Position numbers and translations under genes: made by a program. From Minisyncoccota bacterium (GTDB lineage Bacteria; Patescibacteriota; Minisyncoccia; Phycocordibacterales; CAJBRS01), in assembly GCA_017881075.1 (NCBI GenBank), contig JADGRH010000006.1, forward strand, positions 117,666 through 181,665: a stretch of 64,000 nucleotides of DNA. The letters are read 5' to 3'. The notes beneath the pieces were generated by a model. It was given only the letters and a program-made list of their open reading frames with translations. It was not told the origin of the DNA and ran no database searches. Positions 266 through 60,230 of the stretch are shown here, piece by piece (position 1 is the first letter of the stretch; each line of letters opens with the position of its first letter).

Positions 266-1495
266 ATGAGTAAAAAAGTCTCTGTGATTGGAGTTTTGGT
301 TCTATGTTTAATTATTTTTTCCTTAACTTTAACTTCTCTCCACTCCCAAACCTACACCTCCGTCCCTCCCACCTTCCAATTCACCCGTAACCTCGGCCTC
401 GGTAACCGCGGTCAGGATGTAGAGAACCTCCAGTGTATATTAGGAGTGACACAGACGACCGGATATTACGGTCCCATCACTGCAGCCGCCGTTCTCCAGT
501 TTCAAAACGCTCACCCTACAGAGGTTCTTACTCCGATAGGTTTAACCGCTGGCACTGGCTACATGGGCTCATCCACCAGAGCTTATCTAAACACACAAAT
601 CTCACAGAATGCTTCATCATCTATCCCAACTTGTCCGACCTATATTCCTCTCACGCCAACAGAACCAACACCTGCACCAATCACATATCAACCTCAGCCA
701 CTACCACAACCTACACAGCCGACACAACCGACCCAAAATACCCAACCACCTCAACAGTTACCTATCACCCCCATCATCAATCCAGATGGTACGGTGAGTT
801 ACCTCAATCCAAATGCAACCTCCACCCTTAATCCTTACGGAACAATTATTAGTCCATACGGAACTACCAACCCTTACAATCCCTACCAGTCAATTCTACC
901 AACTTATAGAAGTCTCAATTCTTCTAATAATTCTCAAGGCTATACAAATTCAAATGCAGCAAATGCAACGGCAGCAATAAATGTTTCGCAGGGTACCGGC
1001 AGTATTGCAGGCTTACCAACAGTCGGCGTCTATAATCCAACAATGAGAAGAAATGAACCGTATGCACACGTTGTCACGGATTCATCCGGGTCTCCTTTTG
1101 TTGGAGATATTGTTACCACTTTCGGAGGTCCAAGAGATCATGACATTGATCCAGTGACCGGTCATGATCTTAACCTCAACCATTTACCCATCTATCCTGC
1201 CTGCACCGCCCACAGTTTAAATCCAAATGCTTATTACATGGCCTTTAGGTGGGATTACACCAAACCACAAACAACTTTCGCTAAACTTCGAAGTTCTTAT
1301 GTTCGTTTTTATAATCCAAAAACCAGATTGTATGCTTTAGCTATGCCGGTGGATTGGGGGCCGTCCCCTGTCTCCCCATCAAAAGCCACCATAGATGTAA
1401 GCGAAGGAACTCTGAAAGCTTTAGGAGCTGAGGGTGGAGACAAGATCTATTTTCAAATGGTGCCCGCCAGCGGTCCTTTGAAGTCCCCGTGTTGA
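266..1495 (+). CDS. secreted protein: N-terminal peptidoglycan-binding (PG_binding_1-like) module, P/T/Q-rich linker, C-terminal RlpA-like double-psi beta-barrel (putative lytic transglycosylase)
   Basis: Signal-peptide-like N-terminus. Motif NLGLGNRGQDVENLQCILGV..GYYGPITAAAVLQFQ. C-terminus VDWGPSPVS.SKATIDVSEGTLKALG resembles the RlpA DPBB tail. Confidence 0.7.
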   Translation: MSKKVSVIGVLVLCLIIFSLTLTSLHSQTYTSVPPTFQFTRNLGLGNRGQDVENLQCILGVTQTTGYYGPITAAAVLQFQNAHPTEVLTPIGLTAGTGYMGSSTRAYLNTQISQNASSSIPTCPTYIPLTPTEPTPAPITYQPQPLPQPTQPTQPTQNTQPPQQLPITPIINPDGTVSYLNPNATSTLNPYGTIISPYGTTNPYNPYQSILPTYRSLNSSNNSQGYTNSNAANATAAINVSQGTGSIAGLPTVGVYNPTMRRNEPYAHVVTDSSGSPFVGDIVTTFGGPRDHDIDPVTGHDLNLNHLPIYPACTAHSLNPNAYYMAFRWDYTKPQTTFAKLRSSYVRFYNPKTRLYALAMPVDWGPSPVSPSKATIDVSEGTLKALGAEGGDKIYFQMVPASGPLKSPC

Positions 1496-1520
1496 ATTTT
1501 TCTGATATAATTAAAATATT

Positions 1521-2849
1521 ATGATGAGAAAATATTTCTTATTTGGTTTTCTAGCCATATTCTTAATTTCCCTCCCTCTCTCTATTAACTCCCAAACCTA
1601 CACCTCCGTCCCCCAAAACTTCCAATTCACCCGCAATCTAGGATTGGGTAACCGCGGTCAAGATGTGGAAAATCTTCAATGTATTCTCGGCGTTACCGAT
1701 CCGACTGGATATTATGGAACTATTACCTCTGCCGCTGTGCTCCAATTCCAAAATACTCACGCCGCCGATATCCTTACACCAGTAGGTTTAACCTCTGGCA
1801 CTGGCTACTTTGGTGCATCCACCAGAACTTACATCAACACCCAAATACAGAATGCTTCCTCATCCTCATCCTCATCCTCATCCTCATCCTCATCCTCATC
1901 CATTGTCCCAAGCTGTCCCACCTATACTCCTCCGACACCACTGCAGCCACAACAACCTCCTACCCCATATACTCCACCACCGCTTCCAACTCAACCGACA
2001 CAACCGACCACCCCACCCGGCACCGTCTCATGCCCGACAGGTTACAGCTGTATTCAGACTCCCAACCAAAACCAGAATCAGGGAGGGTTGCCGGCAGTTC
2101 CTTCCTTTGGACAGAATGGTGGGTTGAATGGGGGAAATCAGTATCAGCAACAACAATGCAATAGTTCGGAGGAAAATTTTTATGCTACGCATGGTGGCCG
2201 GAACGCATTGACGGAAGCGGCTTGGCAGTCTTGTTCTTACAATCAGCAGACTCAAAATACTCCTACCACCAATGCTCCACCACCGCCGGCCTCTAACGCG
2301 CCGGCACAGGATAATTTTTATGCAGTTAATGCGGATTCCTACATACTCGGACAATATAGGAATGGAGGTGATTGCTCACAGAATCAGGGTTACCAAAATT
2401 GTCCCGGACACCCACACTATTACACTACTCACCTTGCTAACCCCACACGTAGATGTGCCATTGACCCCACGATCGCATATTTAGAAAAAGACTTATTGCC
2501 CAAAGCTTTTCCTGGAGTTACTTTTAGCAGTGACTGTAGAACACCCAATGACAATCCTCCGAATCCTCCGGACAATGTGCATTATCCTGGCTTAGCAGTT
2601 GATATTCAGAAAAATGGTGGTCCTATAACAAAGGAAGTGGGTGACAAATTGGTAATTTGGGCTCAGAGGCCGGAAAATTTGATTTTAGGTTTAAAACAAA
2701 TTATTTTTGATGAAAAATCATGGAGATTCGTATCCTATAGCGATGCCTCCGGTCAACATTCTCACTGGATTGGCCCACTACAATTTGGTTGCCAAGGCGA
2801 AGGAGATAGTTGTCACCATGTTCACGTTCATTTTTCTGTAGGCGGTTAA
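1521..2849 (+). CDS. secreted protein: PG-binding module + poly-Ser/Pro linker + C-terminal LAS/M15-like zinc peptidase domain
   Basis: Paralog of 266-1495 with the same N-terminal module. C-terminal HYPGLAVDIQ ... CHHVHVHF matches the H-x(n)-D / H-x-H zinc ligand pattern of VanY/M15 peptidases. Confidence 0.65.
   Translation: MMRKYFLFGFLAIFLISLPLSINSQTYTSVPQNFQFTRNLGLGNRGQDVENLQCILGVTDPTGYYGTITSAAVLQFQNTHAADILTPVGLTSGTGYFGASTRTYINTQIQNASSSSSSSSSSSSSSSIVPSCPTYTPPTPLQPQQPPTPYTPPPLPTQPTQPTTPPGTVSCPTGYSCIQTPNQNQNQGGLPAVPSFGQNGGLNGGNQYQQQQCNSSEENFYATHGGRNALTEAAWQSCSYNQQTQNTPTTNAPPPPASNAPAQDNFYAVNADSYILGQYRNGGDCSQNQGYQNCPGHPHYYTTHLANPTRRCAIDPTIAYLEKDLLPKAFPGVTFSSDCRTPNDNPPNPPDNVHYPGLAVDIQKNGGPITKEVGDKLVIWAQRPENLILGLKQIIFDEKSWRFVSYSDASGQHSHWIGPLQFGCQGEGDSCHHVHVHFSVGG
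1857..1901 (+). repeat. hexanucleotide SSR (TCCTCA) x7.5 encoding poly-Ser inside CDS 1521-2849
   Basis: Direct tandem repeat read from sequence. It is in-frame, so copy-number changes vary linker length and do not shift the frame. Confidence 0.9.
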
Positions 2850-2965
2850 GAAAAGGGAGAAAATAGCAACGGCGATGCCCCCTTGCCACATCACCCACGT
2901 GCATTTCGGCATTAACTAAGCTATAATTTAAGCCGAGGGAAACACTTTCGTTTTTATAATAAACC

Positions 2966-4315
2966 ATGCAAAATAAACACTCTTTGGCCCGATATTTCTC
3001 TCTTCTTTTGATTATTGGTATTTTTTTCTCTCCAATCCCTGTTCTTTATGCACAAAATTCCCCAAATTACGACTATTCTCTGGTTCCAAACACCTACTCT
3101 TTTAATAGAGACTTTGGTAATCCTACCCAAGATCCGGCAGGCCAAAATGACGTTTCCTATTTACAATGTATTCTTGGCATGAGTCCAACCGGCTATTTCG
3201 GCTCGATCACCCAAGCCACCCTAAAAACATTTCAAGAGAATCACGCTGAAGCAGTTCTTACTCCGGTAGGTTTAACCACCGGTACTGGATATTTAGGTAG
3301 CAGTACCAGAGCTTACATCAATGCTCAACTAGTGACCGATGGTTCCACCACGGGTCCTCATTGCAGTGCTCCTACAAACACCACTGATCAATATGGTAAT
3401 CCAATCGGTACTCAATATCCTAACAATACCAACCCGTATCAAACGAATCCAAACAACAATAATCAACCCGCTAACAGTCAAAACTCGCTTCTCCCTCTCC
3501 TTCCCTACTTTATGATGATGTCACAAGGAGGAGGAGCACCACATTTGGTAAATCCAAATCAGCAGAATTCAACAAATAATCAAACTCCGTATTATCCACC
3601 AACAACTACTACCACTACAAATCCTCCAGCCGGTCCAGCTAATCCAGCTAATCCAGTTAATCCAGCTAATCCTCAACAAAATCCTCTAGCAAATAATTAC
3701 GGGAACCCACTATCATGTCAGTCGCCTAATACTTTTAATTACGCAACCGGAAAATGTGTAACTCCAGATGGTTGTAATTTGCCGCAAGTCTTTAATTTCC
3801 CAATGGGAAAGTGTGTAGATCCAAGTGGAACATCTCAGACTCCTCCGACCTCTAGCCAATCTAATCCGGACCACATCTTTGCTGGTCCAGTTGTTTATGA
3901 TTCTATGGATGCTGTTAACCGAGGTAATGAAATTTATTTGGGCAATGATGACAGACCATGTAGGCGCAGTGAGCCACACATGTTTTTAATTATCGTGAAT
4001 AATAGATATATATCTTCCGGTGATGGATCTCTTTACTTATTATTTGATGAAAATCAGACCAAGCTTGGAGGCCAACTAGTTGCTAGTCAAAATAATCTGG
4101 CTCCTGCGGCTGAACTTCTTAAAACAGGCCAGTGTATAACAGGTGACTTTATCCCCAACTCTACTCGTCTCAATGGATACCAAAGTAATTTTTGTCAGGA
4201 TTATACTCGATATGGCCAGCCACGCGTAGGTAGTACCGCTTGGCCGGTGGATGGGATTTTGAATAATATTGAAGTAAGTGCCAACGGAGCATGCTCTACA
4301 AATGTTCCACACTAA
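2966..4315 (+). CDS. secreted protein: PG-binding module + N/Q/P-rich linker with (PAN)n repeats + Cys-containing C-terminal domain of unknown function
   Basis: Third paralog. Motif VSYLQCILGMSPTGYFGSITQATLKTFQENH. TATAAT lies 5 nt before the ATG. Confidence 0.65.
   Translation: MQNKHSLARYFSLLLIIGIFFSPIPVLYAQNSPNYDYSLVPNTYSFNRDFGNPTQDPAGQNDVSYLQCILGMSPTGYFGSITQATLKTFQENHAEAVLTPVGLTTGTGYLGSSTRAYINAQLVTDGSTTGPHCSAPTNTTDQYGNPIGTQYPNNTNPYQTNPNNNNQPANSQNSLLPLLPYFMMMSQGGGAPHLVNPNQQNSTNNQTPYYPPTTTTTTNPPAGPANPANPVNPANPQQNPLANNYGNPLSCQSPNTFNYATGKCVTPDGCNLPQVFNFPMGKCVDPSGTSQTPPTSSQSNPDHIFAGPVVYDSMDAVNRGNEIYLGNDDRPCRRSEPHMFLIIVNNRYISSGDGSLYLLFDENQTKLGGQLVASQNNLAPAAELLKTGQCITGDFIPNSTRLNGYQSNFCQDYTRYGQPRVGSTAWPVDGILNNIEVSANGACSTNVPH
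3635..3670 (+). repeat. 9-nt tandem repeat CCAGCTAAT x4 (encodes PANPANPVNPANP)
   Basis: Read directly from the sequence. It is in-frame. Confidence 0.85.
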
Positions 4316-9045: not shown

Positions 9046-10227
9046 TTGTGGAAATGGCAGAATGAGGGATTTATCATTAATCTTAGGCTTATTTTACCAT
9101 ACAGTAGGATTCCAAGCCGGTTTTCGGCCTCTCTAAAGCCCAAAAGTCTTATCACAAGCCTCTTCTATGGAAGGCTCATATTATCATTAGTATTACTAAG
9201 CTTGCCAGGCAATACCCAGGCAAGTGTTTTTTCATTTGTTGGCCATCTATTTGCTGGCACCAACGCCAACGCTAGCGCCTCGGATATAGTCCAAGAATCC
9301 TCCAATTCCCAGAAAATGCCTCTTCTCCAGCTGGCTCTAAACACTAATCCTACCCCATACAATAAAGAACCCGACTTAAATGTGGTGGGAGAGGCACTTC
9401 TCGCTGTAAGCGGTCCTGAAGGGGCGGCTTCCGAATCTTCCTCAGTCGTTCGTCCTTCTAATGATCAGATCAGCCTTTATACTGTCCGAGAGGGCGATAC
9501 TCTTTCAAGTATTGCCAACCTTTTTAATGTTACGGTTAATACCATTCGGTGGGCCAACGATCTGAATTCTGGCTCTACTATCAAAAAAGGACAAGTTTTA
9601 ATTATCTTACCGATCTCTGGAGTTAAATATACGGTTAAGAAGGGGGATACAGTTCAGAGTATAGCTAAGTCATACGGTGGTGATGTTGGTGAAATTAATA
9701 GTTTCAACAATCTCGAGGTAGGCCAAAAACTGTCAGTTGGAGATGAGGTTGTTATTCCCGACGGAGAACTTAGCAGTGGCGTCCAAACTTCTTCCGAAAA
9801 TTCATCAAATGGATCTAAAACTACGGTCACCAAGAGTGGTAAAACTACTGCCGGCCCAACTAGTGGCACCTATATTGATTCAAGCGGCTATTTCCGCCGA
9901 CCACTTGACGGAGGCGTTCGCACTCAAGGTATACATGGACACAATGGTGTTGACTGGGGATCTCCGGTAGGCACCCCGATCCACGCCGCCGCTTCTGGCC
10001 AAGTGATTATCAGTAAAAATAGCGGTTGGAATGGTGGCTATGGCGACTATGTGGTAATCAGCCACCCTAATGGTACGCAGACTCTTTATGCTCACATGAG
10101 CAAGACGGCAGTTTCTGGTGGAGCGAACGTGGAGAAAGGAGAAGTTATCGGCTACATTGGCCTGACCGGCGAAACCACCGGCCCCCATGTCCACTTTGAA
10201 GTTCGAGGAGCCAAAAATCCGTTCTAA
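9046..10227 (+). CDS. secreted LysM (x2) + M23 family peptidase (TTG start, uncertain)
   Basis: Two LysM motifs (YTVREGDTLSSIA, YTVKKGDTVQSIA). M23 motifs HNGVDWG...GYGDYVVISH...GPHVHFEV. A signal-like hydrophobic stretch lies ~40 aa in. Confidence 0.8.
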   Translation: MWKWQNEGFIINLRLILPYSRIPSRFSASLKPKSLITSLFYGRLILSLVLLSLPGNTQASVFSFVGHLFAGTNANASASDIVQESSNSQKMPLLQLALNTNPTPYNKEPDLNVVGEALLAVSGPEGAASESSSVVRPSNDQISLYTVREGDTLSSIANLFNVTVNTIRWANDLNSGSTIKKGQVLIILPISGVKYTVKKGDTVQSIAKSYGGDVGEINSFNNLEVGQKLSVGDEVVIPDGELSSGVQTSSENSSNGSKTTVTKSGKTTAGPTSGTYIDSSGYFRRPLDGGVRTQGIHGHNGVDWGSPVGTPIHAAASGQVIISKNSGWNGGYGDYVVISHPNGTQTLYAHMSKTAVSGGANVEKGEVIGYIGLTGETTGPHVHFEVRGAKNPF

Positions 10228-16516: not shown

Positions 16517-17461
16517 TTGTGCGACATGACTCTTCAAGAATTAAAACGTCAATATCTGGAACACATTGAGATAGAAAAGGGGCGGAGTTTAAATACGGTG
16601 CGGAATTATGAGCACTACCTGGATCGATTTTTGGAATTTTCAAAAGCGAAGAGTCCGAGTGATATTACAGACGAGGTTCTTCGCGAATATCGCCTGTGGT
16701 TGAATCGTCAAAGCGCCGGAGCGAAGAATATCAAAGAGACCGACACTCTAAAGAAGCGCACCCAAAATTATTATCTCATCGCTCTCCGGTCTTTCTTGAA
16801 ATACCTGGCCAAAAGAAAGATCACTTCCCTCTCACCGGAAACAATTGAGCTCGCCAAGGTACCCGAACGCTCGCTCGATCTCATTTCTGGTGATGATCTC
16901 AAACGATTACTCAAGGCCCCAGAGAAAGAAAAGAATGAGCTGAAAAAACTAAGAGATAGAGCCATTTTAGAGCTATTTTTCTCTACCGGTCTTCGTGTCT
17001 CCGAGCTCTGTTCTCTCTCGCGGGACCTCGATATGGGCAAGGATGAGTTCTCTATTCGAGGAAAAGGCGAGAAAGTAAGAGTAGTTTTCTTATCTGATGA
17101 AGCAAAAGCGGCAGTGAAAAAATATTTAGCCAAGAGAGTAGACGTGCAAGACGCCATGTTTGTTCAGCTGCAAAGTCCTATCGGAAAAAGTAAAGAAGCT
17201 AAAGAACTCAATCGTCTCACTCCCCGCTCTATTGAAAGAATCGTCAAAAATTACGCTATCAAGGCCGGTATTTCTAAAAAAGTAACCCCTCACGTTCTTC
17301 GTCACAGCTTTGCCACCGATCTTCTGGAAAACGGCGCCGACCTCCGATCCGTTCAGATGCTTCTCGGCCACGCCAATATCACCACTACCCAGATCTACAC
17401 CCACGTGACCGACAAACATCTGAAAGATATCCATAAAAATTTTCATAACAAGAGAAAATAA
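16517..17461 (+). CDS. xerC: tyrosine site-specific recombinase XerC/XerD family
   Basis: C-terminus HVLRHSFATDLLENGADLRSVQMLLGHANITTTQIYTHV. Confidence 0.85.
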   Translation: MCDMTLQELKRQYLEHIEIEKGRSLNTVRNYEHYLDRFLEFSKAKSPSDITDEVLREYRLWLNRQSAGAKNIKETDTLKKRTQNYYLIALRSFLKYLAKRKITSLSPETIELAKVPERSLDLISGDDLKRLLKAPEKEKNELKKLRDRAILELFFSTGLRVSELCSLSRDLDMGKDEFSIRGKGEKVRVVFLSDEAKAAVKKYLAKRVDVQDAMFVQLQSPIGKSKEAKELNRLTPRSIERIVKNYAIKAGISKKVTPHVLRHSFATDLLENGADLRSVQMLLGHANITTTQIYTHVTDKHLKDIHKNFHNKRK

Positions 17462-25774: not shown

Positions 25775-25784
25775 TCTCAATTGT

Positions 25785-25885
25785 CTGGTGTGGCCCGCAT
25801 CCTTTCCGTTCGTTTTTCTCCGCAGACTCCGAAGAAACGACCGTAAACTCTGCGGGAACAGCCTGGACCATTGGGTATTGCACAG
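25785..25885 (+). repeat. copy A of a ~105-nt GC-rich intergenic repeat family (shared termini CCTGGTCCCCCGCATCC ... CGGGAACAGCCTGGAC-TTGG-ATTGCA)
   Basis: Aligned by eye with copies at 32845-32947 and 34270-34378. Confidence 0.75.
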
Positions 25886-26085
25886 TTCTCATGTAGTGGT
25901 GCGGCTACTCTAGGTTCTAATTGATAAGCGAAAACCACCAGCATTTTCTTTAATGAGGAAACTGTTTGACGAGTTTACGAATTGCCTGCCGAAGGAGACA
26001 ACGGCTTCGACTCGACTGGAGGCGGTGCAATCGTTAACGAGGAGTTTTCCGAGTTAAAGAAAATGCTGGGGGTTGGAGCGAGAAG

Positions 26086-30233: not shown

Positions 30234-30962
30234 ATGAGGCTACACCGGTTTTTAATTGAAGAGGTTATAGGGGGAGCGGAGGAGATCATGATTACCGACT
30301 CCGAGCTTATTCACCAGTGGAAGAACGTTTTTCGGTTTACGACCGGGACACGGCTAATCCTTTTTGATGGTTCCGGTTTTGAATATCTGGGTTTGATTGA
30401 TCGACTCTCTAATCTTGGAGCCAAGGTCAGAATCTTAAGCAAGGAAGACAAAAATAACGTTCCATATCCAGAAATTTGTCTTTTTGCCGCTCTGATTAAG
30501 AAAGATAATTTTGAGTGGATTATTGAAAAGGCGACTGAACTTGGGGTTTCACAAATTGTGCCGGTTCTCTGTGACCGAAGTGAGAAGAAGGGACTGAACA
30601 TGGTCCGAGCAAAGAAGATCATGAAAGAGGCGAGCGAGCAGTCGGGAAGGGTAAAGTTGCCCAGGTTGAATGAGCCTCAAGCGCTTGAGGATTTACTGAA
30701 AAGTATAAAGATTGGAGATGAAGAAAACTTAAAAATTTTCTCAATAGATCCGAAAGGAAAGATAAAATTTGGAAACTTAGCTTCCAAATGGAAAGAGGTT
30801 AAAGAAATTGGGGTTTTGGTGGGGCCGGAAGGGGGGTGGAGTGAAAGGGAATTGGAGCTTTTCCGTCTGAAAAAGATCCCAATCTATAGTCTCGGCCCTC
30901 AAATCCTCCGGGCCGAGACGGCAGCTATCGCAGTTGCATCTCTACTTATTTTAGGAGAATGA
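30234..30962 (+). CDS. rsmE: 16S rRNA (uracil1498-N3)-methyltransferase RsmE family
   Basis: MRLHRF... VLVGPEGGWSEREL. Confidence 0.65.
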   Translation: MRLHRFLIEEVIGGAEEIMITDSELIHQWKNVFRFTTGTRLILFDGSGFEYLGLIDRLSNLGAKVRILSKEDKNNVPYPEICLFAALIKKDNFEWIIEKATELGVSQIVPVLCDRSEKKGLNMVRAKKIMKEASEQSGRVKLPRLNEPQALEDLLKSIKIGDEENLKIFSIDPKGKIKFGNLASKWKEVKEIGVLVGPEGGWSERELELFRLKKIPIYSLGPQILRAETAAIAVASLLILGE

Positions 30963-30990
30963 ATTATCGAAGTCTGACTTCAATAATTCA
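30960..30990. repeat. palindrome family member: TGAATTATCGAAGTC-T-GACTTCAATAATTCA
   Basis: 31-nt near-perfect palindrome between the convergent rsmE and tig genes. Confidence 0.8.
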
Positions 30991-32025
30991 TTATTTCTTC
31001 TCCTCTAAAAATCGCCACACTAATTCATTAGTGAGTAACTGTTCGATGTAGATGCGGACACGAGACGGGTCGGCGTCTTTGTGGTGGGAGAGGAGATGCT
31101 TGGTTTCTTTTTCAACATCCTCTTTTGCCGGCTCAATCTTTTCGAGAAGGGCAATTTTCTGTAAGATTAATTCCATCTTGGCACGTTTTTCAGCTTCATT
31201 TTTCCATTCACCTTTTATTTCCTCTTCAGTCTTTCCGATCTGTTTAAAATAATCTTCAATTTTTATTCCCATACCACTAACATTGCTTTTGAATTGAGTG
31301 AGCATTTTTTCCTGTTCACTTTCCACCAGGATTTTCGGGACCACCACACTCGTGGCGGCAATAATTTTCTCAATAGTTTCTAAACGACGTTTTTCCCGCA
31401 GACGCAATTCTTTCTCGTTTCGTAAATTTTCTCGTAGTTGATTTTTAAAATCTTCCACGTCTTTGAATTCACCGAATTGTTTTACTAATTCATTGGTCAG
31501 CGGGGTGAGAGGCGGCGGCACGGCATTTTCCGCCGCCGCCTTTTCGGGCGATAGGTTCTTTTGAAAACGCAAAAGAGCCTCTTCAAATTCTTGATCGGTA
31601 ACTTCGGCTTTTTCATCTTTCCCCATGATTGCCTTAGCCAATTTTTTATAATCTGGCAACTTAACCTCTGGCACCATAGCCACTTTTATTTTAAAACCCA
31701 GAGGATTGCCGGCCGCAAGTTTAGTGATGGAAACTTGCGGCCGACCGACAGGGTTGATCTTTACTTCAATCAGTATCTTTAAATAAAAATTTTCTAGGGC
31801 GAGCGAGGCGGCTTCTTCAAGAATGCCGAGATCACCGACCTTCTCAATCAGCACCTTCTCCGGAATATGACCTTTGCGAAAGCCATCAATTGTTAGTCGC
31901 TCGTTCAATCTTTTAATGGCCTCAACGCGATGTCTAGCCACGGCTTCAACCGATATTTCTCCTTCAATTTCAATTTCCGAATCAGGCAACTGATTCGTCT
32001 TTAAGATTTTGAATTCCTCCTTCAT
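30991..32025 (-). CDS. tig: trigger factor (short form)
   Basis: IDGFRKGHIPEKV matches trigger factor IDGFRKGKVP. Adjacent to clpP. Confidence 0.75.
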   Translation of the reverse strand: MKEEFKILKTNQLPDSEIEIEGEISVEAVARHRVEAIKRLNERLTIDGFRKGHIPEKVLIEKVGDLGILEEAASLALENFYLKILIEVKINPVGRPQVSITKLAAGNPLGFKIKVAMVPEVKLPDYKKLAKAIMGKDEKAEVTDQEFEEALLRFQKNLSPEKAAAENAVPPPLTPLTNELVKQFGEFKDVEDFKNQLRENLRNEKELRLREKRRLETIEKIIAATSVVVPKILVESEQEKMLTQFKSNVSGMGIKIEDYFKQIGKTEEEIKGEWKNEAEKRAKMELILQKIALLEKIEPAKEDVEKETKHLLSHHKDADPSRVRIYIEQLLTNELVWRFLEEKK

Positions 32026-32771: not shown

Positions 32772-32844
32772 GGTTTTATTATATCAAATATTAATTGACT
32801 CGCGCCACGAACGTACAATTTCAAGCGATATTAATAGGAATATC

Positions 32845-32947
32845 ACCCTGGTCCCCCGCATCCTTTCCGTTCGACTTTTCCTCCCAGAACCTCGGAAAAG
32901 CGACCGTAAACTCTGCGGGAACAGCCTGGACGTTTGGGCATTGCAAA
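32845..32947 (+). repeat. copy B of ~105-nt GC-rich repeat family (same orientation as copy A)
   Basis: Terminal 19 nt and 31 nt are identical to copy A. Confidence 0.75.
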
Positions 32948-32976
32948 ATGTTTATTTGGTGGCGGCGATAAACTTT

Positions 32977-34152: not shown

Positions 34153-34269
34153 GTTATAGCTGTTAGGAATTAGTAATAATTTTTTAAAAAAGAAGTTCGC
34201 CGGAAGGCGAACTAATAATTAAACTTTATTCTTTTTAAATCATTTGTCAATCCCCGCCACTAAAAGGTC

Positions 34270-34378
34270 TGCTGTGCAATATCCAAACGTCCAGGCTGTT
34301 CCCGGAGAGCTCGTGAACGACACTTCTGGAGTCTTCGGAAGAATGTCGGGCAGGAGCGATACGGGGGACCAGGGTTGT
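34270..34378 (-). repeat. copy C of ~105-nt GC-rich repeat family (inverted relative to A and B)
   Basis: The reverse complement ends ...GGGAACAGCCTGGACGTTTGGATATTGCACAG and starts CAACCCTGGTCCCCCG. Confidence 0.75.
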
Positions 34379-34393
34379 CCACATTCTTTAGAT

Positions 34394-48057: not shown

Positions 48058-48098
48058 AAACGACGCCGATTTTATTTTTCTAATTCCTTTTTATTGAA

Positions 48099-48121
48099 TG
48101 ACCGAAGTCTGACTTCGGTCA
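48099..48121. repeat. palindrome family member: TGACCGAAGTC-T-GACTTCGGTCA (23-nt perfect)
   Basis: Lies between convergent genes and abuts the trmB-like stop codon. Confidence 0.85.
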
Positions 48122-48910
48122 TCACTTGTTGTCACTCATCTGCCAGAGAGTTTCATAAACAGCTTTCATGCTTTCGGCGATGCTTCGGCTTTGGATAATG
48201 ATTCCATGCTCTCTGCCTTTTGATAAAGACATAATGCCAATACGATCAGCATAAATATCAATTTCATTTTTGAAGTTGTATAAGTCCGGTGGTAAGAAAC
48301 GGACGGTGCGAAGCTCTTTCTGGTTTCGTTCTGTTGAAAATTCCTTCATTGCTCTTTCAGTTTTGGGAATAATTCCGCGAGTAGGAATAGCTAAAGCTGT
48401 TCGCCGCTCCCAATAATTATTTAAGAACTCTTCGCCGAAGCTATACTCTATTGATTCAACAGAGGAAAAAGACAAGATCTCTCGAGGCTTATTTTTTAAG
48501 GTATCGTTTAAAACCTCTCTCACTCCATCCACTCCTTCATAAAAAAGAACAACAGGCTTATCTTCGGCGGAAGAAAAATTCGCTTCAAATTCATTTTTTA
48601 ACGACTCTGCCCTTTTCAATAAGTCGGTGACGGCTTCCTGTTTTGATTCTAGCCTTGCCACAATATCCGAATATTCCATCGGCACGAAATACTTAGTCCG
48701 ATTATTCTTTTTAGCTCGTATCTTTACAAAGCCTTTAGCCGAGAGCCGTTTCAAGGCCTCATAGGCGGTGACTCTATTAAGGCCAGCTACTTTGGCGATA
48801 CCACTCGCCGAACCAGACCCAATATCTAAAGTGGCCAAATAAGCCCCAATCTCGGCCTTATTTAAGCCCAGTTCGGTTAAAAACTGTCTCATTTCCGGTC
48901 TAATATTCAT
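48122..48910 (-). CDS. TrmB-like HTH transcriptional regulator
   Basis: N-terminal winged-helix region ...IAKVAGLNRVTAYEALKRLSAKGFV. Confidence 0.5.
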   Translation of the reverse strand: MNIRPEMRQFLTELGLNKAEIGAYLATLDIGSGSASGIAKVAGLNRVTAYEALKRLSAKGFVKIRAKKNNRTKYFVPMEYSDIVARLESKQEAVTDLLKRAESLKNEFEANFSSAEDKPVVLFYEGVDGVREVLNDTLKNKPREILSFSSVESIEYSFGEEFLNNYWERRTALAIPTRGIIPKTERAMKEFSTERNQKELRTVRFLPPDLYNFKNEIDIYADRIGIMSLSKGREHGIIIQSRSIAESMKAVYETLWQMSDNK

Positions 48911-50046: not shown

Positions 50047-50081
50047 AATAGTATTTTAACATATCCATCATATCCTCCAGC

Positions 50082-50110
50082 AAAATAACGAAGTCAGACT
50101 TCGTTATTTT
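50082..50110. repeat. palindrome family member: AAAATAACGAAGTC-A-GACTTCGTTATTTT (29-nt perfect)
   Basis: Lies between the divergent HIT and recJ genes. Confidence 0.85.
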
Positions 50111-54140: not shown

Positions 54141-54881
54141 ATGAATAAGATTGTCATTTTTACCGACGGCGCTTCGCGAGGCAATCCCGGTCCGGGTGGC
54201 TGGGGCGCTGTAATAGCTTATAGGAATCAGCTTATAGCTTATAGCAAAAAGGAAAGTGTAATTGAGTTGGGAGGAAGAGAGACTAATACAACCAACAACA
54301 GAATGGAATTAATAGCGGCAATCAAAGCTTTAGAATACATTTCCTATAAGCTAAAACCTATAAGCTATAAGCTAGATATTTACACCGACTCTTCCTATTT
54401 GATAAATGGCATCACCAAATGGGTAAGTGCCTGGCGAATGAATGATTGGCGCACAAAGGCCAAAAAAGAAGTTTTAAATCGCGAACTCTGGGAGGAGTTG
54501 GTAGAGCAGACGGAAAACAAGAATATTGAATGGAAATATTCTGGCGGTCATAGCGGCATCGCCGGTAATGAAAGGTGTGATGAGATCGCAACGGAATTTG
54601 CCGATGGTAAAGAAGTAAATTTACACAACAGCGCGCTTTCAAAATACCCGATTGATATTTTGAATTTTAATTTTAATGAGGCGAAAACTCAAAAAAAGGC
54701 GGCCCTTCGGCGGCACTCAGGGCTTGCAGCCTACTCCTACGTCAGTATGGTAGACGGTAAAATAAAAACCCACAAATCCTGGCCCGACTGCGAAAAGCGC
54801 GTCAAAGGCAAGAGTGGAGCAAGGTTTAAGAAAGCAACGAGTGCTGCTCAAGAAAAAGAAATTATTAGCGCTTGGGAATAG
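54141..54881 (+). CDS. rnhA: ribonuclease HI with C-terminal hybrid-binding (Cauli_VI-like) domain
   Basis: IFTDGASRGNPGPGGWG... C-terminus YSYVSMVDGKIKTHKSWPDCEKRVKGKSGARFKKATS matches the HBD consensus. Confidence 0.85.
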   Translation: MNKIVIFTDGASRGNPGPGGWGAVIAYRNQLIAYSKKESVIELGGRETNTTNNRMELIAAIKALEYISYKLKPISYKLDIYTDSSYLINGITKWVSAWRMNDWRTKAKKEVLNRELWEELVEQTENKNIEWKYSGGHSGIAGNERCDEIATEFADGKEVNLHNSALSKYPIDILNFNFNEAKTQKKAALRRHSGLAAYSYVSMVDGKIKTHKSWPDCEKRVKGKSGARFKKATSAAQEKEIISAWE

Positions 54882-54935: not shown

Positions 54936-56339
54936 ATGAAGTTTTACGTTTTTGTCTGGAGTTTTTTTGGCGTTGTTTTTCTTGCCTCGGTTTTCCATTG
55001 GCCGCTTTGGCCGTTTCACAATCACGATCCCAATTTCTATTCTCACCTTAATGAAGTCGTAACCATTCGCGGAATTATAGTGGATGAGCCGGATCAAAGA
55101 GAAAACAATACCAATCTAATAATTCTACCGACAAAAATTAATGACAAGTCTTTTTCTACTAAAGAAAAATTAATTGCTCGAGCTCCATCATATTCCACTT
55201 TTCAATACGGAGATGAGGTTGAAGTAAGGGGGAAGTTGGAATTGCCGGAAATGATCGATTCGGATAATGGTCGTACTTTCAATTATCCCGAATATCTGGC
55301 AAAAGATAATATCTATTATTTGATAAATAGGGCGGAGGTCAAGGTAATTTCAAGCGGCCATGGAAATATCGTTAAAAGAAATCTTTTCAAAATCAAGCAT
55401 GCCTTTCTCTCTAATCTCAATGAATTATTACCTGAACCGCATTCCGGTTTCATGGGTGGCTTGATTATTGCCGGAAAGAAATCTTTGCCGGCCGATATTT
55501 TGGCCGAATTTCAGAGAACTGGAACACTGCAGATAGTTGTTCTCTCCGGCTACAACATTACTATTGTGGCCGAAGCAATGATGAAAATGTTTTCATTTTT
55601 ACCAAGCGCCGGCGGATTGATAGCCGGCGCTGGGAGCATCATTCTTTTTTCAATTATGGCGGGTGGCGCGTCTACGATAGTCCGCGCCGCCGTCATGGCC
55701 TTGATCTCCATTCTCGGTAAGGCTACTCACCGTGTTTATGATGCCAAACGAGCCCTCTTTATGGCCGGTTTTTTAATGGTACTTCAGAATCCAAAGATAT
55801 TGACCTATGACCCTTCATTTCAGCTTAGTTTTATGGCTACTTTGGGGTTAATGGTTCTCTCGCCATTCTTCGAGCAACGTCTATTATGGATTCCAGAAAA
55901 ATTCCAACTTAGGGCAATGGCTTCAGCAACTCTTGCCAGCCAAGTTTTCGTCACTCCGATTATTTTCTACCAGATCGGCCAGGTTTCTCTTGTTTCCGTG
56001 CCAACCAACATGCTAATGCTCATTCTTGTTCCAACAATAATGTTGATCGGTTTTATCACGGGGCTTGTGGGGTTTGTCAGCCACTTGGTCGCAATGCCTT
56101 TTGCCTTCATTTCGTATTTTTTACTTTCATACGAGCTTTTTGTGTTAAAATTTTTTGCCAATATTCCTTTTGCTTTGATCTCAATTCCATTTCCGTTCTG
56201 GGTGTTAGCCGGCGTTTACGGTTTTTATGTTTTTATCTTTTTTAAGAGGAGAAAAAATACCAGCCAAATAACAAAAGAAAGCGCCGCCGTAGGCGGCGCT
56301 TTCTCAAGAATTAAAGACATTAAGATCCTAGAGGACTAA
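54936..56339 (+). CDS. comEC: ComEC/Rec2 family DNA-uptake channel (DUF4131 + competence domain; no MBL domain)
   Basis: Multi-pass membrane protein. LQIVVLSGYNITIV. Confidence 0.8.
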   Translation: MKFYVFVWSFFGVVFLASVFHWPLWPFHNHDPNFYSHLNEVVTIRGIIVDEPDQRENNTNLIILPTKINDKSFSTKEKLIARAPSYSTFQYGDEVEVRGKLELPEMIDSDNGRTFNYPEYLAKDNIYYLINRAEVKVISSGHGNIVKRNLFKIKHAFLSNLNELLPEPHSGFMGGLIIAGKKSLPADILAEFQRTGTLQIVVLSGYNITIVAEAMMKMFSFLPSAGGLIAGAGSIILFSIMAGGASTIVRAAVMALISILGKATHRVYDAKRALFMAGFLMVLQNPKILTYDPSFQLSFMATLGLMVLSPFFEQRLLWIPEKFQLRAMASATLASQVFVTPIIFYQIGQVSLVSVPTNMLMLILVPTIMLIGFITGLVGFVSHLVAMPFAFISYFLLSYELFVLKFFANIPFALISIPFPFWVLAGVYGFYVFIFFKRRKNTSQITKESAAVGGAFSRIKDIKILED

Positions 56340-56935
56340 ATTACTTTATCGAATCTCTCTTCCACTTTCTGCCAGTTGAGATTCTCAAAAAAAGCTTCAA
56401 TATATTTTTTCTTTTCCGACGGCGCATAATCCAACATGTAGGAATGTTCCCACATATCAAGGCCAAGAATGAATCGGAGGGAAGTAAGATGCCCCAAATG
56501 TTGTTCCTCCACCCAGGTATTGAGAAGTTTGCCGGTTCGTGAATCCAAGTAAAGAACTGCCCAGCCAATTCCTCGTGTCATAGCGACAGCCTTAAATTGA
56601 GAAAGCCAAGTTTCGAAACTGCCATACTGATCAACGATGCTTTTATAAAAAGTTCCGGCAGCGCTTGCCTCAATCGCCGATCCCTCAAACTGTTCAAAGT
56701 AGTATTCATGATTTCTCATTCCGTCGAACTCAAAGCCGAAGCGACGTTGTAGCTCACCCATAACGTAAGTATTTTTCTCTGTGTCGATAGAATACTCCTT
56801 AAGTTTTTCTCGGATGAGATTAGTGTGTTTGACGTACCCAGTGTAGAGCTTAAGGTGCTCCTCAATGGTCTTTTTCGAAATCCCCTTTAATTCCGGAATA
56901 TTAAATTTTTGCTCAACATAATTTTCTGGAGGCAT
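56336..56935 (-). CDS. sodA: Fe/Mn superoxide dismutase
   Basis: DMWEHSYMLDY plus N-terminal His motifs. Confidence 0.85.
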   Translation of the reverse strand: MPPENYVEQKFNIPELKGISKKTIEEHLKLYTGYVKHTNLIREKLKEYSIDTEKNTYVMGELQRRFGFEFDGMRNHEYYFEQFEGSAIEASAAGTFYKSIVDQYGSFETWLSQFKAVAMTRGIGWAVLYLDSRTGKLLNTWVEEQHLGHLTSLRFILGLDMWEHSYMLDYAPSEKKKYIEAFFENLNWQKVEERFDKVI

Positions 56936-57002
56936 AGTTTTTATATTAAATTAATAATAATTTCATCTCACATGTTTATAATATCAGATTCTGTCTGATC
57001 TG

Positions 57003-57091
57003 GTGCCCACTCGCATGCCTCCGTTCGACGTTCTTTCGGAAACCTCAAGAAGTCGCCCAGAGTCAAGCTCGCAACACCTCGGCCTTTAAGT
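57003..57091 (+). repeat. left copy of ~85-bp inverted repeat (~95% identical to 59064-59148 rc)
   Basis: Aligned by eye; the central ~70 nt are identical. Confidence 0.85.
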
Positions 57092-57147
57092 GATAAATTA
57101 TGTATTAATCACTTCACCAACGCACTAATATTATAGACGTTTCAAAC

Positions 57148-58014
57148 ATGAAATATTTCAAAACACATTTTTCTCTCGTTTTAATTGGTTTCTTAGTGCT
57201 ACTAAATTCAGCCATTTGGTACGCCACGATCTGGGAAGACCACGGCAATGTCTTAAAAGTGGCCTTTTTGAACATTGGCCAAGGCGACTCAATTTTCATT
57301 GAGTCGCCAAACGGCAACAAGATAATGATCGATGGCGGGCCGGTGGGGAATAAGACTGAAAGTGAGCTCGCCAAACAATTACCATTTTATGATCGTCATC
57401 TTGACTTGATCATACTGACTCATCCCGATGCCGATCATGTTGTTGGTTTCCAATCAATTTTAAATGATTACAAAGTAGATAAAGTAATGGAGCCTGGCTC
57501 AAACACTGATACGGCAACTTATAAAAAAATTGAGGAAACAATAACAACTGAAAAAATTCCTAAGACTCTGGCTCGGAGGGGAATGCGAATCGTTTTAGAT
57601 CAAAAGCGAAAAATATATCTAACCATTCTCTTTCCGGATCGCGATCCTGCAACCTGGGATACAAACACGAGCTCAATTGTGGCGCGACTCACGTATGGTC
57701 ACGATTCTTTTCTTTTTCAAGGAGATTCGCCTCAGGTAATTGAGAATTATCTCGTTTCAATTGACGGAACTACTCTCAAAAGTGATGTCTTGAAAGCTGG
57801 TCATCATGGTTCTAAGACATCCACCAGCGATTTATATGTTCAAACTGTTCAGCCAACCTACACTATTATCTCGGCCGGTCTGAACAATCGCTATGGTTTT
57901 CCTCATCAACAAACGATTGATATCTTAAATAAATATCACACTAAAATATTAAAGACCTACGAAATGGGGACGATAGTGATGAGGTCCGATGGGGAGAAAA
58001 TTTCAGTTAAATAA
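57148..58014 (+). CDS. MBL-fold metallo-hydrolase (ComEC C-terminal lactamase_B-like domain encoded separately)
   Basis: ILTHPDADHVVGF... GHHGSKTSTS. Signal/TM at the N-terminus. Confidence 0.75.
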   Translation: MKYFKTHFSLVLIGFLVLLNSAIWYATIWEDHGNVLKVAFLNIGQGDSIFIESPNGNKIMIDGGPVGNKTESELAKQLPFYDRHLDLIILTHPDADHVVGFQSILNDYKVDKVMEPGSNTDTATYKKIEETITTEKIPKTLARRGMRIVLDQKRKIYLTILFPDRDPATWDTNTSSIVARLTYGHDSFLFQGDSPQVIENYLVSIDGTTLKSDVLKAGHHGSKTSTSDLYVQTVQPTYTIISAGLNNRYGFPHQQTIDILNKYHTKILKTYEMGTIVMRSDGEKISVK

Positions 58015-58249
58015 CCCCCGCCTTCTTTAGGGTGGCGTAGGCGCCGTTCTTCTGGATGGTTTTGATAGCTTTAGTTGAAAGGGTGATGCTTACGAATTTT
58101 TTCAATTCAGGAATGTAGATTCTTTTCTTCTGGAGATTCGGATATTTACGCACTTTTCCGGTAGGGTTAAACTGCGTCGCTCGAGTGCGATTGCTGTAAC
58201 CTCCGGCCATCCGGGAACCCACCTTTGTAATTGCGCAAACTTTTGCCAT
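58007..58249 (-). CDS. rpmB: 50S ribosomal protein L28
   Basis: MAKVCAITKVGSRMAGGYSNRTRATQ. Confidence 0.85.
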   Translation of the reverse strand: MAKVCAITKVGSRMAGGYSNRTRATQFNPTGKVRKYPNLQKKRIYIPELKKFVSITLSTKAIKTIQKNGAYATLKKAGVI

Positions 58250-58290
58250 AAGATTTTCATGCTACCATATTAAATATATATTTAGCAAAC

Positions 58291-58908
58291 ATGGATCCCA
58301 CCTCATTAATTTTTTCGATAATAATTCTGCTCCTATCCGTAATAATTCACGAGGTCTCACATGGCTATGCGGCTGAAGCTTTGGGCGATCCGACGGCGCG
58401 ATATGCTGGCAGATTAACCATGAACCCTATTCCACATCTTGATCTTTTCGGCTCAATTCTTTTACCTTTCCTTCTTGTCATTACCGGATCGCCATTTCTC
58501 ATTGGTTGGGCTAAACCCGTACCATACAATCCATACAATTTACGCAATCAACGCTGGGGAGAGGCAATTGTTGCTGGCGCTGGTCCGGCTGTTAATATCA
58601 TCATTGCTCTTTTCTTTGGCTTGATTCTCCGCTTTGCCACCCTCTCCCTTTCCGCGTCGCTTGTTAGTATTATGAGCACCATTGTTATCATCAACATTCT
58701 CCTCGCCGTTTTTAATCTTGTTCCTATTCCTCCCCTCGATGGTTCTAAGATTCTTTTTTCCATTTTGCCGTATGGCGCTCGAGGCATCCGCTTCGGCCTC
58801 GAGCGCTACGGCTTTGTTCTCGTCCTGATCTTTGTTTTCTTCTTATGGCAATACGTTTCGCCAGTAATTTTCCATATCTTTTCTTTTATTACGGGGATCC
58901 AGGGGTAG
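58291..58908 (+). CDS. site-2 protease (peptidase M50) family membrane metalloprotease
   Basis: HEVSHGYAA (HExxH) and NLVPIPPLDGSKIL. Confidence 0.65.
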   Translation: MDPTSLIFSIIILLLSVIIHEVSHGYAAEALGDPTARYAGRLTMNPIPHLDLFGSILLPFLLVITGSPFLIGWAKPVPYNPYNLRNQRWGEAIVAGAGPAVNIIIALFFGLILRFATLSLSASLVSIMSTIVIINILLAVFNLVPIPPLDGSKILFSILPYGARGIRFGLERYGFVLVLIFVFFLWQYVSPVIFHIFSFITGIQG

Positions 58909-59063
58909 TCAGCCTCCAGCCGCATTAGTATTTCTTGCCTGCGGTGCGACGCTCTGGAAAAGGCAATTCTAGCAGTACTTTCGCTATCCTCGGCAGCGAA
59001 ATACTAATGCGACTTCCGGCTTCCTTTCCACATCAGTGATAGTGATAGGTAATAAAAATGTAA

Positions 59064-59148
59064 CTTAAAGGACGAGGTGTTGCGAGCTTGACTCTGGGCG
59101 ACTTCTTGAGGTTTCCGAAAGAACGTCGAACGGAGGCATGCGAGCGGA
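59064..59148 (-). repeat. right copy of ~85-bp inverted repeat
   Basis: See the left copy at 57003-57091. Confidence 0.85.
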
Positions 59149-59232
59149 CACGATCTGTATTTACAAGGTTGCATTTTCTGCTTCTCTGTATTACATTATT
59201 ACCTACGCCACGAGGCGCATTTTCATTAAGAA

Positions 59233-59646
59233 ATGCCAACAATCAACCAACTAATCAAACGAAAAAGAACCAAACCGGTCCGCAAAGTGCGAGCGGTCGC
59301 TTTGACGCGCACATTTAATACTTTGGAAAATCGACCCGGCTACAACCCATCTCCATTCAAACGAGGTGTCTGTACTAAAGTGACGACCAAGACTCCGAAA
59401 AAGCCAAACTCCGCTATTCGAAAGATTGCTAGAGTACGACTCACTAACGGCCTGGAAGTGACGGCTTACATTCCCGGCGAAGGTCACAACTTGCAGGAAC
59501 ACTCCGTAGTCTTGCTTCGCTCCGGAAAAGTAAAAGACATCGGCGTACGCTACACCATCGTTCGCGGAGTACTCGATGCTACCGGTGTGGAAAAAAGACG
59601 AAAGGTTCGCAGTATGTATGGGACAAAGAAACCTAAAAAATCATAA
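59233..59646 (+). CDS. rpsL: 30S ribosomal protein S12
   Basis: [12 protein letters not shown]... Confidence 0.95.
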
Positions 59647-60122: not shown

Positions 60123-60182
60123 TTTTCGCTTATTGATAAATATCGTCCAAAAAAGATCAAAAGCCAAGTAATTTAGTAAATT

Positions 60183-60201
60183 ATCGAAGTCAGACTTCGT
60201 T
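60183..60201. repeat. palindrome family member: ATCGAAGTC-A-GACTTCGTT
   Basis: Lies between rpsG and the inserted gene. Confidence 0.8.
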
Positions 60202-60230
60202 AAATCTAGAATGTGTGGTATTGTGTAGCC

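Follow-up and report, generated by a model that had tools for sequence, protein, structure and literature searches.

Genomes of Patescibacteria (the candidate phyla radiation) are small, tightly packed and usually described as repeat-poor. In a stretch of 64,000 nt from one Minisyncoccota bacterium (assembly GCA_017881075.1, contig JADGRH010000006.1, positions 117,666 to 181,665; the whole stretch is referred to here as the window), near-identical sequences lie in inverted orientation upstream of sodA and rpsL, with a 2 kb segment of three genes between them. The question raised by this locus is what these sequences are and whether they serve the genes that they adjoin. An earlier reading of the same DNA, referred to here as the original prediction, had proposed a flippable segment, a cis-regulatory element shared by sodA and rpsL, or a landing pad for a transcription factor. 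The analysis described here favours another answer. The two arms are best read as the youngest members of a family of intergenic repeats that are confined to one lineage, non-coding, rich in G+C and imperfectly palindromic. The family is probably of the same kind as the miniature inverted-repeat transposable elements (MITEs) and the REP and ERIC repeats.

The inverted pair at sodA and rpsL

A repeat search of the window returned the sodA/rpsL inverted pair as its strongest repeat by a wide margin, with arms of 111 nt each (57003-57113 and 59041-59151) that are 88 % complementary and have 1927 nt between them. Within the arms, a core at 59063-59144 has a single mismatch when aligned with the reverse complement of 57010-57091 (81 of 82 positions agree), and its longest uninterrupted match is 72 nt. 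These values confirm the predicted near-identical inverted repeats around a 2 kb three-gene segment, and the gene layout was also as claimed, with a metallo-beta-lactamase (MBL) gene (+), rpmB (-) and an M50 protease gene (+) between the outward-facing sodA and rpsL. A 48-nt pattern from the core occurs exactly twice in the 64 kb, where none was expected (100 shuffles). The two arms are richer in G+C (55-56 %) than the window as a whole (43 %) and the spacers around them (21-46 %).

Some details of the original prediction needed correction. The 78-nt string described as identical differs between the two copies at two positions (GGACGAGG and GCGAGCGG at rpsL, against GGCCGAGG and GCGAGTGG at sodA), and its end lies 71 nt from the ATG of sodA and 85 nt from that of rpsL, rather than 66 and 93 nt. 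The internal hairpin is present and forms part of a far longer imperfect hairpin at 59078-59150. A GGAGG-C-AUG motif in the string does not resemble a start signal, given its 1-nt spacer and the different open reading frames (ORFs) behind each copy (10 versus 38 codons); a coding reading was rejected on the same spacer and the lack of conservation of these short ORFs between copies.

Five copies of one repeat family

Three covariance models were built, one from the sodA/rpsL pair only (R1), one from all five copies described below (R2) and one from the three copies of a second subfamily only (R3). R1 was run over the 64 kb window without filters. After the pair and the reverse strands, its top three matches were at 32846-32938 (-), 25785-25876 (-) and 34282-34374 (+), each on one strand only, over the full model length and with a G+C content of 57-60 %, at E-values that are weak (0.14-0.9). 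The same three sites had already formed a separate repeat family in a plain repeat search. In the reciprocal direction, the best match of R3 beyond its own three copies and their reverse strands was the rpsL copy (14.3 bits, E=0.11), again at full length and on the same strand, and part of the sodA copy was matched too. With R2, the five copies reached 96-102 bits, and no other part of the window exceeded 18.8 bits. The two subfamilies align over about 100 nt, with common blocks GG-TGTT, GTCGAACGGA, ATGCG and a CAC(C)AGA tail. Identity over 109 model positions is 84 % between the two subfamily-1 copies, and identity among the three subfamily-2 copies is 67-78 %. Judged by these searches and alignments, the five copies are homologous to one another. 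The check for additional copies that had been suggested for the pair, run within the window, therefore found three diverged full-length relatives.

The element is about 110 nt long, or about 130 nt with a 5' extension seen in subfamily 2, and its five copies have a G+C content of 49-58 % (window, 43 %). The 64 kb hold at least five copies in two subfamilies, approximately one per 13 kb. Like MITEs, they are short, non-coding and dispersed, with only short, copy-specific ORFs running across them. Neighbouring genes were named with Pfam, and sodA, the rpsL operon, ppa and the gene with an fn3 domain are functionally unrelated. The copy at 25778 lies in a convergent spacer and has no downstream gene. 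Only the two copies between co-directional genes have informative orientations, and both are in the sense direction, a number too small to indicate a bias. The two copies that flank nusA constitute a second outward-facing inverted pair, with an identity of 68 %. Coordinates of the copies and of the surrounding features are given in Table 1.

Empty sites in related genomes

The names attached to the most similar proteins place the organism in Patescibacteria/Paceibacterota. Orthologous DNA was compared in a relative represented by one 209 kb contig (L009 and L015; 39 kb read; identity of MBL 81 % and of NusA 89 %), in GCA_038215155.1 (L010 and L017; 38.6 kb read; MBL 77 %, NusA 86 %) and in other relatives (L012, MBL 85 %; L018, NusA 91 %; L025, M50 protease 83 %). 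Protein identity to the closest relatives was thus 86-91 % for NusA, 77-85 % for MBL and 76-83 % for the M50 protease. R2 found no copy in about 85 kb of syntenic DNA from relatives. At the copy density of the window, about three copies would be expected per 39 kb relative stretch, and the probability of finding none is about 0.05 for each. All five copy-bearing spacers are larger in the window, by 60-310 nt, and all five sites are empty in the available relatives, which are only 76-91 % identical at the protein level and thus too distant to date the insertions. By this comparison, each copy has been inserted at a site that is unoccupied in the closest genomes available, and the enlarged spacers together with the lack of copies in relatives indicate that the family expanded in the lineage of the window. 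Absence of the repeat from close relatives had been named in advance as an outcome that would count against the original prediction, and none of the relatives examined has the element in the orthologous spacers.

Table 1. Repeat copies, genes, predicted promoters and copy-bearing spacers in the window
Feature	Position	Strand	Remarks
Subfamily-1 copy, rpsL side	59053..59161	+	R2 96.5 bits, E 3e-26; hairpin 59078-59150, core 59063-59144
Subfamily-1 copy, sodA side	56993..57101	-	R2 99.2 bits, E 5.5e-27; hairpin 57004-57076, core 57010-57091
Subfamily-2 copy, between nusA stop and ppa start	32840..32948	-	R1 14.9 bits, E 0.14, full model length; R2 101.9 bits
Subfamily-2 copy, divergent spacer of nusA (-) and fn3-domain gene (+)	34272..34380	+	R1 match; R2 98.9 bits; 5' side near nusA -35 box
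Subfamily-2 copy, convergent spacer of trypsin-like protease gene (-) and RNHCP gene (+)	25778..25885	-	R1 match; R2 101.8 bits
sodA	56336-56935	-	Outside arms
MBL (ComEC-C) gene	57148-58014	+	Between arms
rpmB	58007-58249	-	Between arms
M50 protease gene	58291-58908	+	Between arms
rpsL	59233-59646	+	Outside arms
Inter-copy segment	57102..59052	.	MBL (ComEC-C), rpmB and M50 protease genes; housekeeping; order and orientation conserved
Predicted rpsL core promoter, TTGCAT-N17-TACATT	59169..59197	+	Hexamers conserved, spacer variable in L005, L009 and L025
Predicted sodA extended -10 box, TGATATTAT	56978..56986	-	Aligns with TGCTATTAT in L012, same distance to ATG
Second long lineage-specific hairpin after M50 stop	58911..59021	.	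5' of rpsL-side copy; outside the repeat family
M50-rpsL spacer			324 nt in window; 51-89 nt in relatives
sodA-MBL spacer			212 nt in window; 63-149 nt in relatives
nusA-ppa spacer			205 nt in window; 28-34 nt in L017 and L018, 116 nt in L015
Spacer upstream of nusA			295 nt in window; 145-222 nt in relatives
Protease/RNHCP spacer			311 nt in window; genes overlap in relatives

A shared hairpin

On the gene-facing strand, the subfamily-1 copies fold into one long imperfect hairpin with several purine-purine internal loops (-33.1 kcal/mol, z -3.3; -20.5 kcal/mol for the opposite strand), and the imperfect palindrome spans 73 nt. RNAalifold applied to a MAFFT alignment of the five copies predicted 25 pairs, nine of them with compensatory changes. 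In the model alignment, 85 % of cells are standard pairs and 10 of the 25 pairs are changed on both sides, whereas controls with slid partners gave only one to four pairs of the latter kind and 500 shuffles never attained either value. These changes trace effectively to two lineages and so to few independent events. An example is the CCCGCA/UGCGGG stem of subfamily 2, which is swapped in register for GC-GA-GC/GC-GA-GC in subfamily 1, and two substitutions in the 3' stem strand of the sodA/rpsL pair preserve pairing as G-U. Strand asymmetry is confined to subfamily 1 (20 versus 16-18 standard pairs, compared with 21-22 versus 21-22 in subfamily 2), and subfamily 2 does not stand out in folding energy (z -1.5 to +0.7). 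The pattern of substitutions indicates constraint on the hairpin or palindrome, which may matter as RNA, as single-stranded DNA or in duplex form.

Several known classes of structure were compared with the hairpin and set aside. An intrinsic terminator was rejected, as no U-run follows the hairpin while canonical terminators exist elsewhere in the window. Inspection by eye of the DNA in front of the copies gave no convincing promoter. A search of the whole window with Rfam 15 at the gathering threshold returned four tRNAs only and nothing at the elements, and a search at E-values up to 10 over the pair region and the copies flanking nusA returned nothing overlapping the elements. The two arms do not constitute a template and variable repeat of a diversity-generating retroelement, both copies being intergenic with no reverse transcriptase among the annotated neighbours, and an integron attC site was rejected from the sequence for want of R''/R' core sites and IntI.

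Position relative to promoters

The promoters considered here are predictions from conservation. At rpsL as at sodA, the predicted promoter separates the element from the gene, and the predicted primary transcripts would therefore exclude the element. Three relatives (L005, L009 and L025) have no element in the DNA seen, and the rpsL promoter nearly abuts the M50 stop codon in relatives. Distances from the element to the -10 box follow no fixed geometry: sodA has about 19 nt, rpsL about 40 nt and ppa more than either. The copy at 34272 was inserted beside the conserved TTGACA of nusA, as seen by comparison with L015, L017 and L018. As far as conservation identifies the core promoters, every copy lies in spacer DNA outside them. 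Where a spacer measures about 50 nt, an insertion is tolerated almost nowhere except between a stop codon and the -35 box that follows, so that nearness to promoters needs no function.

These positions bear directly on the regulatory proposals. A 5' RNA or cis-regulatory element common to sodA and rpsL fits poorly with an element that lies upstream of the conserved predicted promoters and occurs at three further, unrelated sites; as a candidate cis-regulatory RNA, it is also absent in relatives and adjoins unrelated genes. Likewise, a transcription factor landing pad that co-regulates oxidative stress functions and the str operon is unsupported, in view of the variable spacing, the copy between convergent genes and the absence of the element in relatives.

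Origin of the pair and spread of the family

The contrast between the perfect core and its diverged flanks points to either a recent local copy or a gene-conversion tract. The 27 nt 5' of the core are about 65 % identical, which is above chance (61 of 5000 shuffles score as well), and the 20 nt 3' of the core have a weak similarity (381 of 5000 shuffles score as well). Both flanking regions correspond to parts of the full-length subfamily-2 element. The proposal that high identity implies recent duplication or gene conversion therefore holds (81/82 in the core versus about 65 % in the flanks), while strong constraint, which had been offered as another cause, is unlikely because the same positions vary freely in subfamily 2.

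A repeat family of this kind may have spread non-autonomously, in a manner resembling transposition, with the hairpin or palindrome as the feature that the mobilising enzyme would require. The sodA and rpsL copies could have arisen through a recent local copy event, perhaps of a shorter core unit, or else an approximately 80-nt gene-conversion tract may have passed between older copies 1.9 kb apart. Their inverted arrangement around MBL-rpmB-M50 would then be a by-product, permitting rare RecA-mediated inversion without constituting a switch. Any effects on expression of sodA and rpsL would be side effects of displacing the DNA upstream of their promoters, and on the rpsL, ppa and protease sides a stable hairpin may have been added to the 3' end of the upstream transcript.

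Palindromic intergenic repeats, including MITE-type elements, are known from several bacteria, among them ERIC/IRU in enterobacteria, Correia/NEMIS in Neisseria, RUP and BOX in pneumococcus and RPE in Rickettsia. The element resembles these in being about 110-130 nt long, non-coding and intergenic, in having several diverged copies in both orientations, in being an imperfect hairpin over its whole length and in its presence or absence between relatives; its copies, like theirs, often adjoin promoters or sit in 3' untranslated regions (UTRs). However, it has no sequence similarity to ERIC/IRU or to other E. coli families, the defined terminal inverted repeats, target duplication and parent insertion sequence of MITEs were not found for it, and its host, a reduced Patescibacteria genome, differs from theirs. 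A literature search returned no description of MITE-like or palindromic repeat families in Patescibacteria or the candidate phyla radiation.

REPs are 20-40 nt long with a conserved GTAG head and occur as inverted pairs tens of bases apart. As in REP/BIME systems, the palindromic unit of the window element makes a hairpin and copies occur as inverted pairs, and the absence of target-site duplications would fit the single-strand HUH mechanism of those systems (RAYT, TnpA-REP). In contrast to REPs, the hairpin is about 73 nt long and the pairs are 1.3-1.9 kb apart; GTAG precedes the 25778 copy only, and none of the ORFs scanned in part of the window resembles RAYT. The pair also resembles invertons, in which inverted repeats flank a short segment, but there is no promoter-only cassette, no adjacent invertase and no evidence of a second orientation, and the arms belong to a dispersed family. 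Leaders of ribosomal protein genes and riboswitches likewise place a structured, G+C-rich element on the sense strand upstream of genes such as rpsL; unlike them, the element lacks orthologous conservation, lies upstream of predicted promoters, adjoins unrelated genes and has no Rfam family.

Several observations weigh against a mobile repeat family. The two subfamilies are only 41-48 % identical to each other, and the models connect them at weak, approximate E-values (0.1-0.9). Exact-word scans of other genome, metagenome and viral contigs, with four patterns covering both subfamilies, detected no copy. These scans gave chance matches in coding or high-G+C DNA, or none; in the scan of genome contigs, the flank of the match in L001 was checked and the other two matches, in unrelated phyla, were presumed to be due to chance. 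Mobility itself rests on presence and absence relative to fairly distant genomes. The ORFs scanned, which cover part of the window, include no transposase, RAYT or other gene for mobilisation. The ends of the element are not definable, the spacers of the relatives being too diverged, and a 4-bp TGTC repeat flanks the 34272 copy with no comparable duplication at the other sites. Finally, two outward-facing inverted pairs slightly exceed what random scatter would give, a feature that mobility does not explain. As further nulls, the rpsL-side spacer had no blastn match in phages and plasmids, and neither subfamily had one in 5,426 E. coli genomes (E<=0.1).

Weighing the alternatives

The constraint on the hairpin is also what would be expected of a functional structured RNA family, made up of small RNA genes or of leader or 3'-UTR modules, in which the gene-facing strand carries a hairpin that binds protein or stabilises the transcript. 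The compensatory changes, the raised G+C content relative to the window and flanking spacers, the better folding and greater number of pairs on the gene-facing strand of the pair, the retention of G-U pairing at its two 3'-stem substitutions and the sense orientation of both copies between co-directional genes all agree with such a family. We nevertheless consider it unlikely, as subfamily 2 has neither strand asymmetry nor unusual folding energies, the copies have no convincing promoter motif before them (by eye) and no U-run after them, the element lies upstream of the predicted transcription start at conserved promoters, and it is not conserved at orthologous sites, belongs to no Rfam family and has unrelated neighbouring genes. 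A site acting at the level of DNA, bound by a transcription factor or nucleoid protein and coupling sodA and the str operon, and also ppa and the fn3-domain gene, would explain why four of the five copies end 5-55 nt from the predicted promoter of the next gene and read toward it, why one copy is also near the -35 box of nusA and why the sequence is palindromic. This was judged very unlikely: the spacing to the -10 box varies (about 19, 40 and >55 nt), one copy between convergent genes has no promoter to serve, a 75-bp imperfect palindrome far exceeds the usual operator, relatives keep the same promoters without the element, and proximity to promoters is expected anyway where short spacers offer few tolerated insertion points. 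A related view, that the hairpin family is an undescribed functional module recruited beside the promoters of highly expressed housekeeping genes, either as an RNA or DNA site bound by a host factor or as the ends used by an unknown, perhaps Xer-like, recombinase that moves or flips blocks (nusA; MBL-rpmB-M50), was given little probability.

Arms of 82 bp that are 99 % identical, inverted and 1.9 kb apart, with a homogenised core that suggests recombination between them and a XerC/D-like tyrosine recombinase encoded 40 kb away, speak for a programmed switch that flips the 2 kb MBL-rpmB-M50 block. Such a switch is highly improbable. The gene order sodA(-) MBL(+) rpmB(-) M50(+) rpsL(+) is unchanged in relatives wherever comparable, with the segment in the same order and orientation in L009, in L010/L011 and in the part covered by L012, so that the flippable segment of the original prediction is unsupported by any second orientation in the window or the relatives. 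The segment at 57102..59052 encodes only MBL, L28 and the M50 protease, which are housekeeping genes, with no recombinase inside or adjacent, the nearest being at 16517-17458. Because the arms are identical, both outward promoters would keep the same neighbouring sequence after a flip, which would have little effect; the two copies flanking nusA, the other inverted pair, are far less similar; and the short-read contigs, which break in the repeat, carry no evidence of orientation. An inversion of RecA type between the 82-bp arms is physically possible and slightly likelier given the signature of gene conversion. The least probable explanation, and one that we regard as scarcely credible, is that misassembly created the inverted duplication. 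The DNA comes from a metagenome-assembled genome, and repeats are prone to such errors. However, in a separate unitig-based Logan assembly of run SRR10489828, contigs that encode the same proteins end within the repeat at three of its four boundaries with unique DNA (L004, L006 and L008), the junction on the M50 side not being seen in that assembly. A true repeat with different flanks breaks a k-mer assembler in this way, which argues against an artefact while being silent on orientation. The copy-specific differences in the arms and the three diverged copies elsewhere in the window also speak against it.

A lineage-specific repeat family therefore remains the probable explanation. It is a modest and ordinary kind of finding, with no new mechanism. 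A hairpin repeat that adjoins the promoters of sodA, rpsL, nusA and ppa indicates that reduced genomes are still open to selfish or semi-selfish DNA and that spacers here are able to expand four- to six-fold in one lineage. Near-identical inverted copies are potential substrates for recombination around essential genes, and such repeats break short-read assemblies and can pass for regulatory motifs. The value of the locus is as an example of repeat-driven spacer expansion in a reduced genome and as a caution against reading repeats as shared regulatory motifs.

Other features of the window

The XerC/D-like tyrosine recombinase gene at 16517-17458 (Phage_integrase with a SAM-like N-terminal domain) follows a 357-nt spacer and is the sole recombinase seen in the scanned part of the window; its product is probably a housekeeping Xer protein. 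Long, stable, lineage-specific hairpins at 58911-59021 and 25933-26074 each lie 30-50 nt 5' of an element copy. The first has folding energies of -51 and -57 kcal/mol on its two strands (z -3.8 and -4.8) and is absent from relatives, in which the M50-rpsL spacer is 51-89 nt. The two hairpins were rejected as one family, there being no detectable similarity between them or to the element.

Upstream of nusA, at 34185-34255 on the minus strand, a conserved TTGACA promoter is followed by a canonical intrinsic terminator (AGTTCGCC-loop-GGCGAACT with a T-run) that ends about 45 nt before the start codon. The arrangement is found in the window and in three relatives (L015 at approximately 9880-9960, L017 at approximately 9900-9975 and L018 at approximately 600-680), and this combination of promoter and terminator looks like a leader attenuator. 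The start codon of ppa comes 6 nt after the end of a perfect extended -10 box, TGATATAAT (32772-32800, minus strand), and the ppa mRNA may therefore be leaderless.

Four intergenic hairpins (30958-30992, 48088-48122, 50079-50110 and 60174-60211) have in common a CGAAGTC[A/T]GACTTCG core with AT-rich pairing flanks. They are terminator-like and may represent a second short repeat family. The RNase H ORF (54141-54881) contains, at 54213-54374, an inverted repeat of ATAGCTTATAG-type units with arms of 25-35 nt that are 77-88 % complementary. At 266-4315 there are three tandem paralogous ORFs (409, 442 and 449 aa) with no Pfam match, which have common repeats of 100-270 nt and Pro/Thr-rich stretches with a 9-nt period.

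ComEC is split in the window (54936-58014), with a DUF4131+Competence gene and the MBL gene apart and sodA between them on the opposite strand, an arrangement common to the relatives L009, L010 and L012. The slot between MBL and rpmB is variable in relatives and is occupied by a 109-aa ORF, a 90-aa ORF or an EamA transporter gene (L012).

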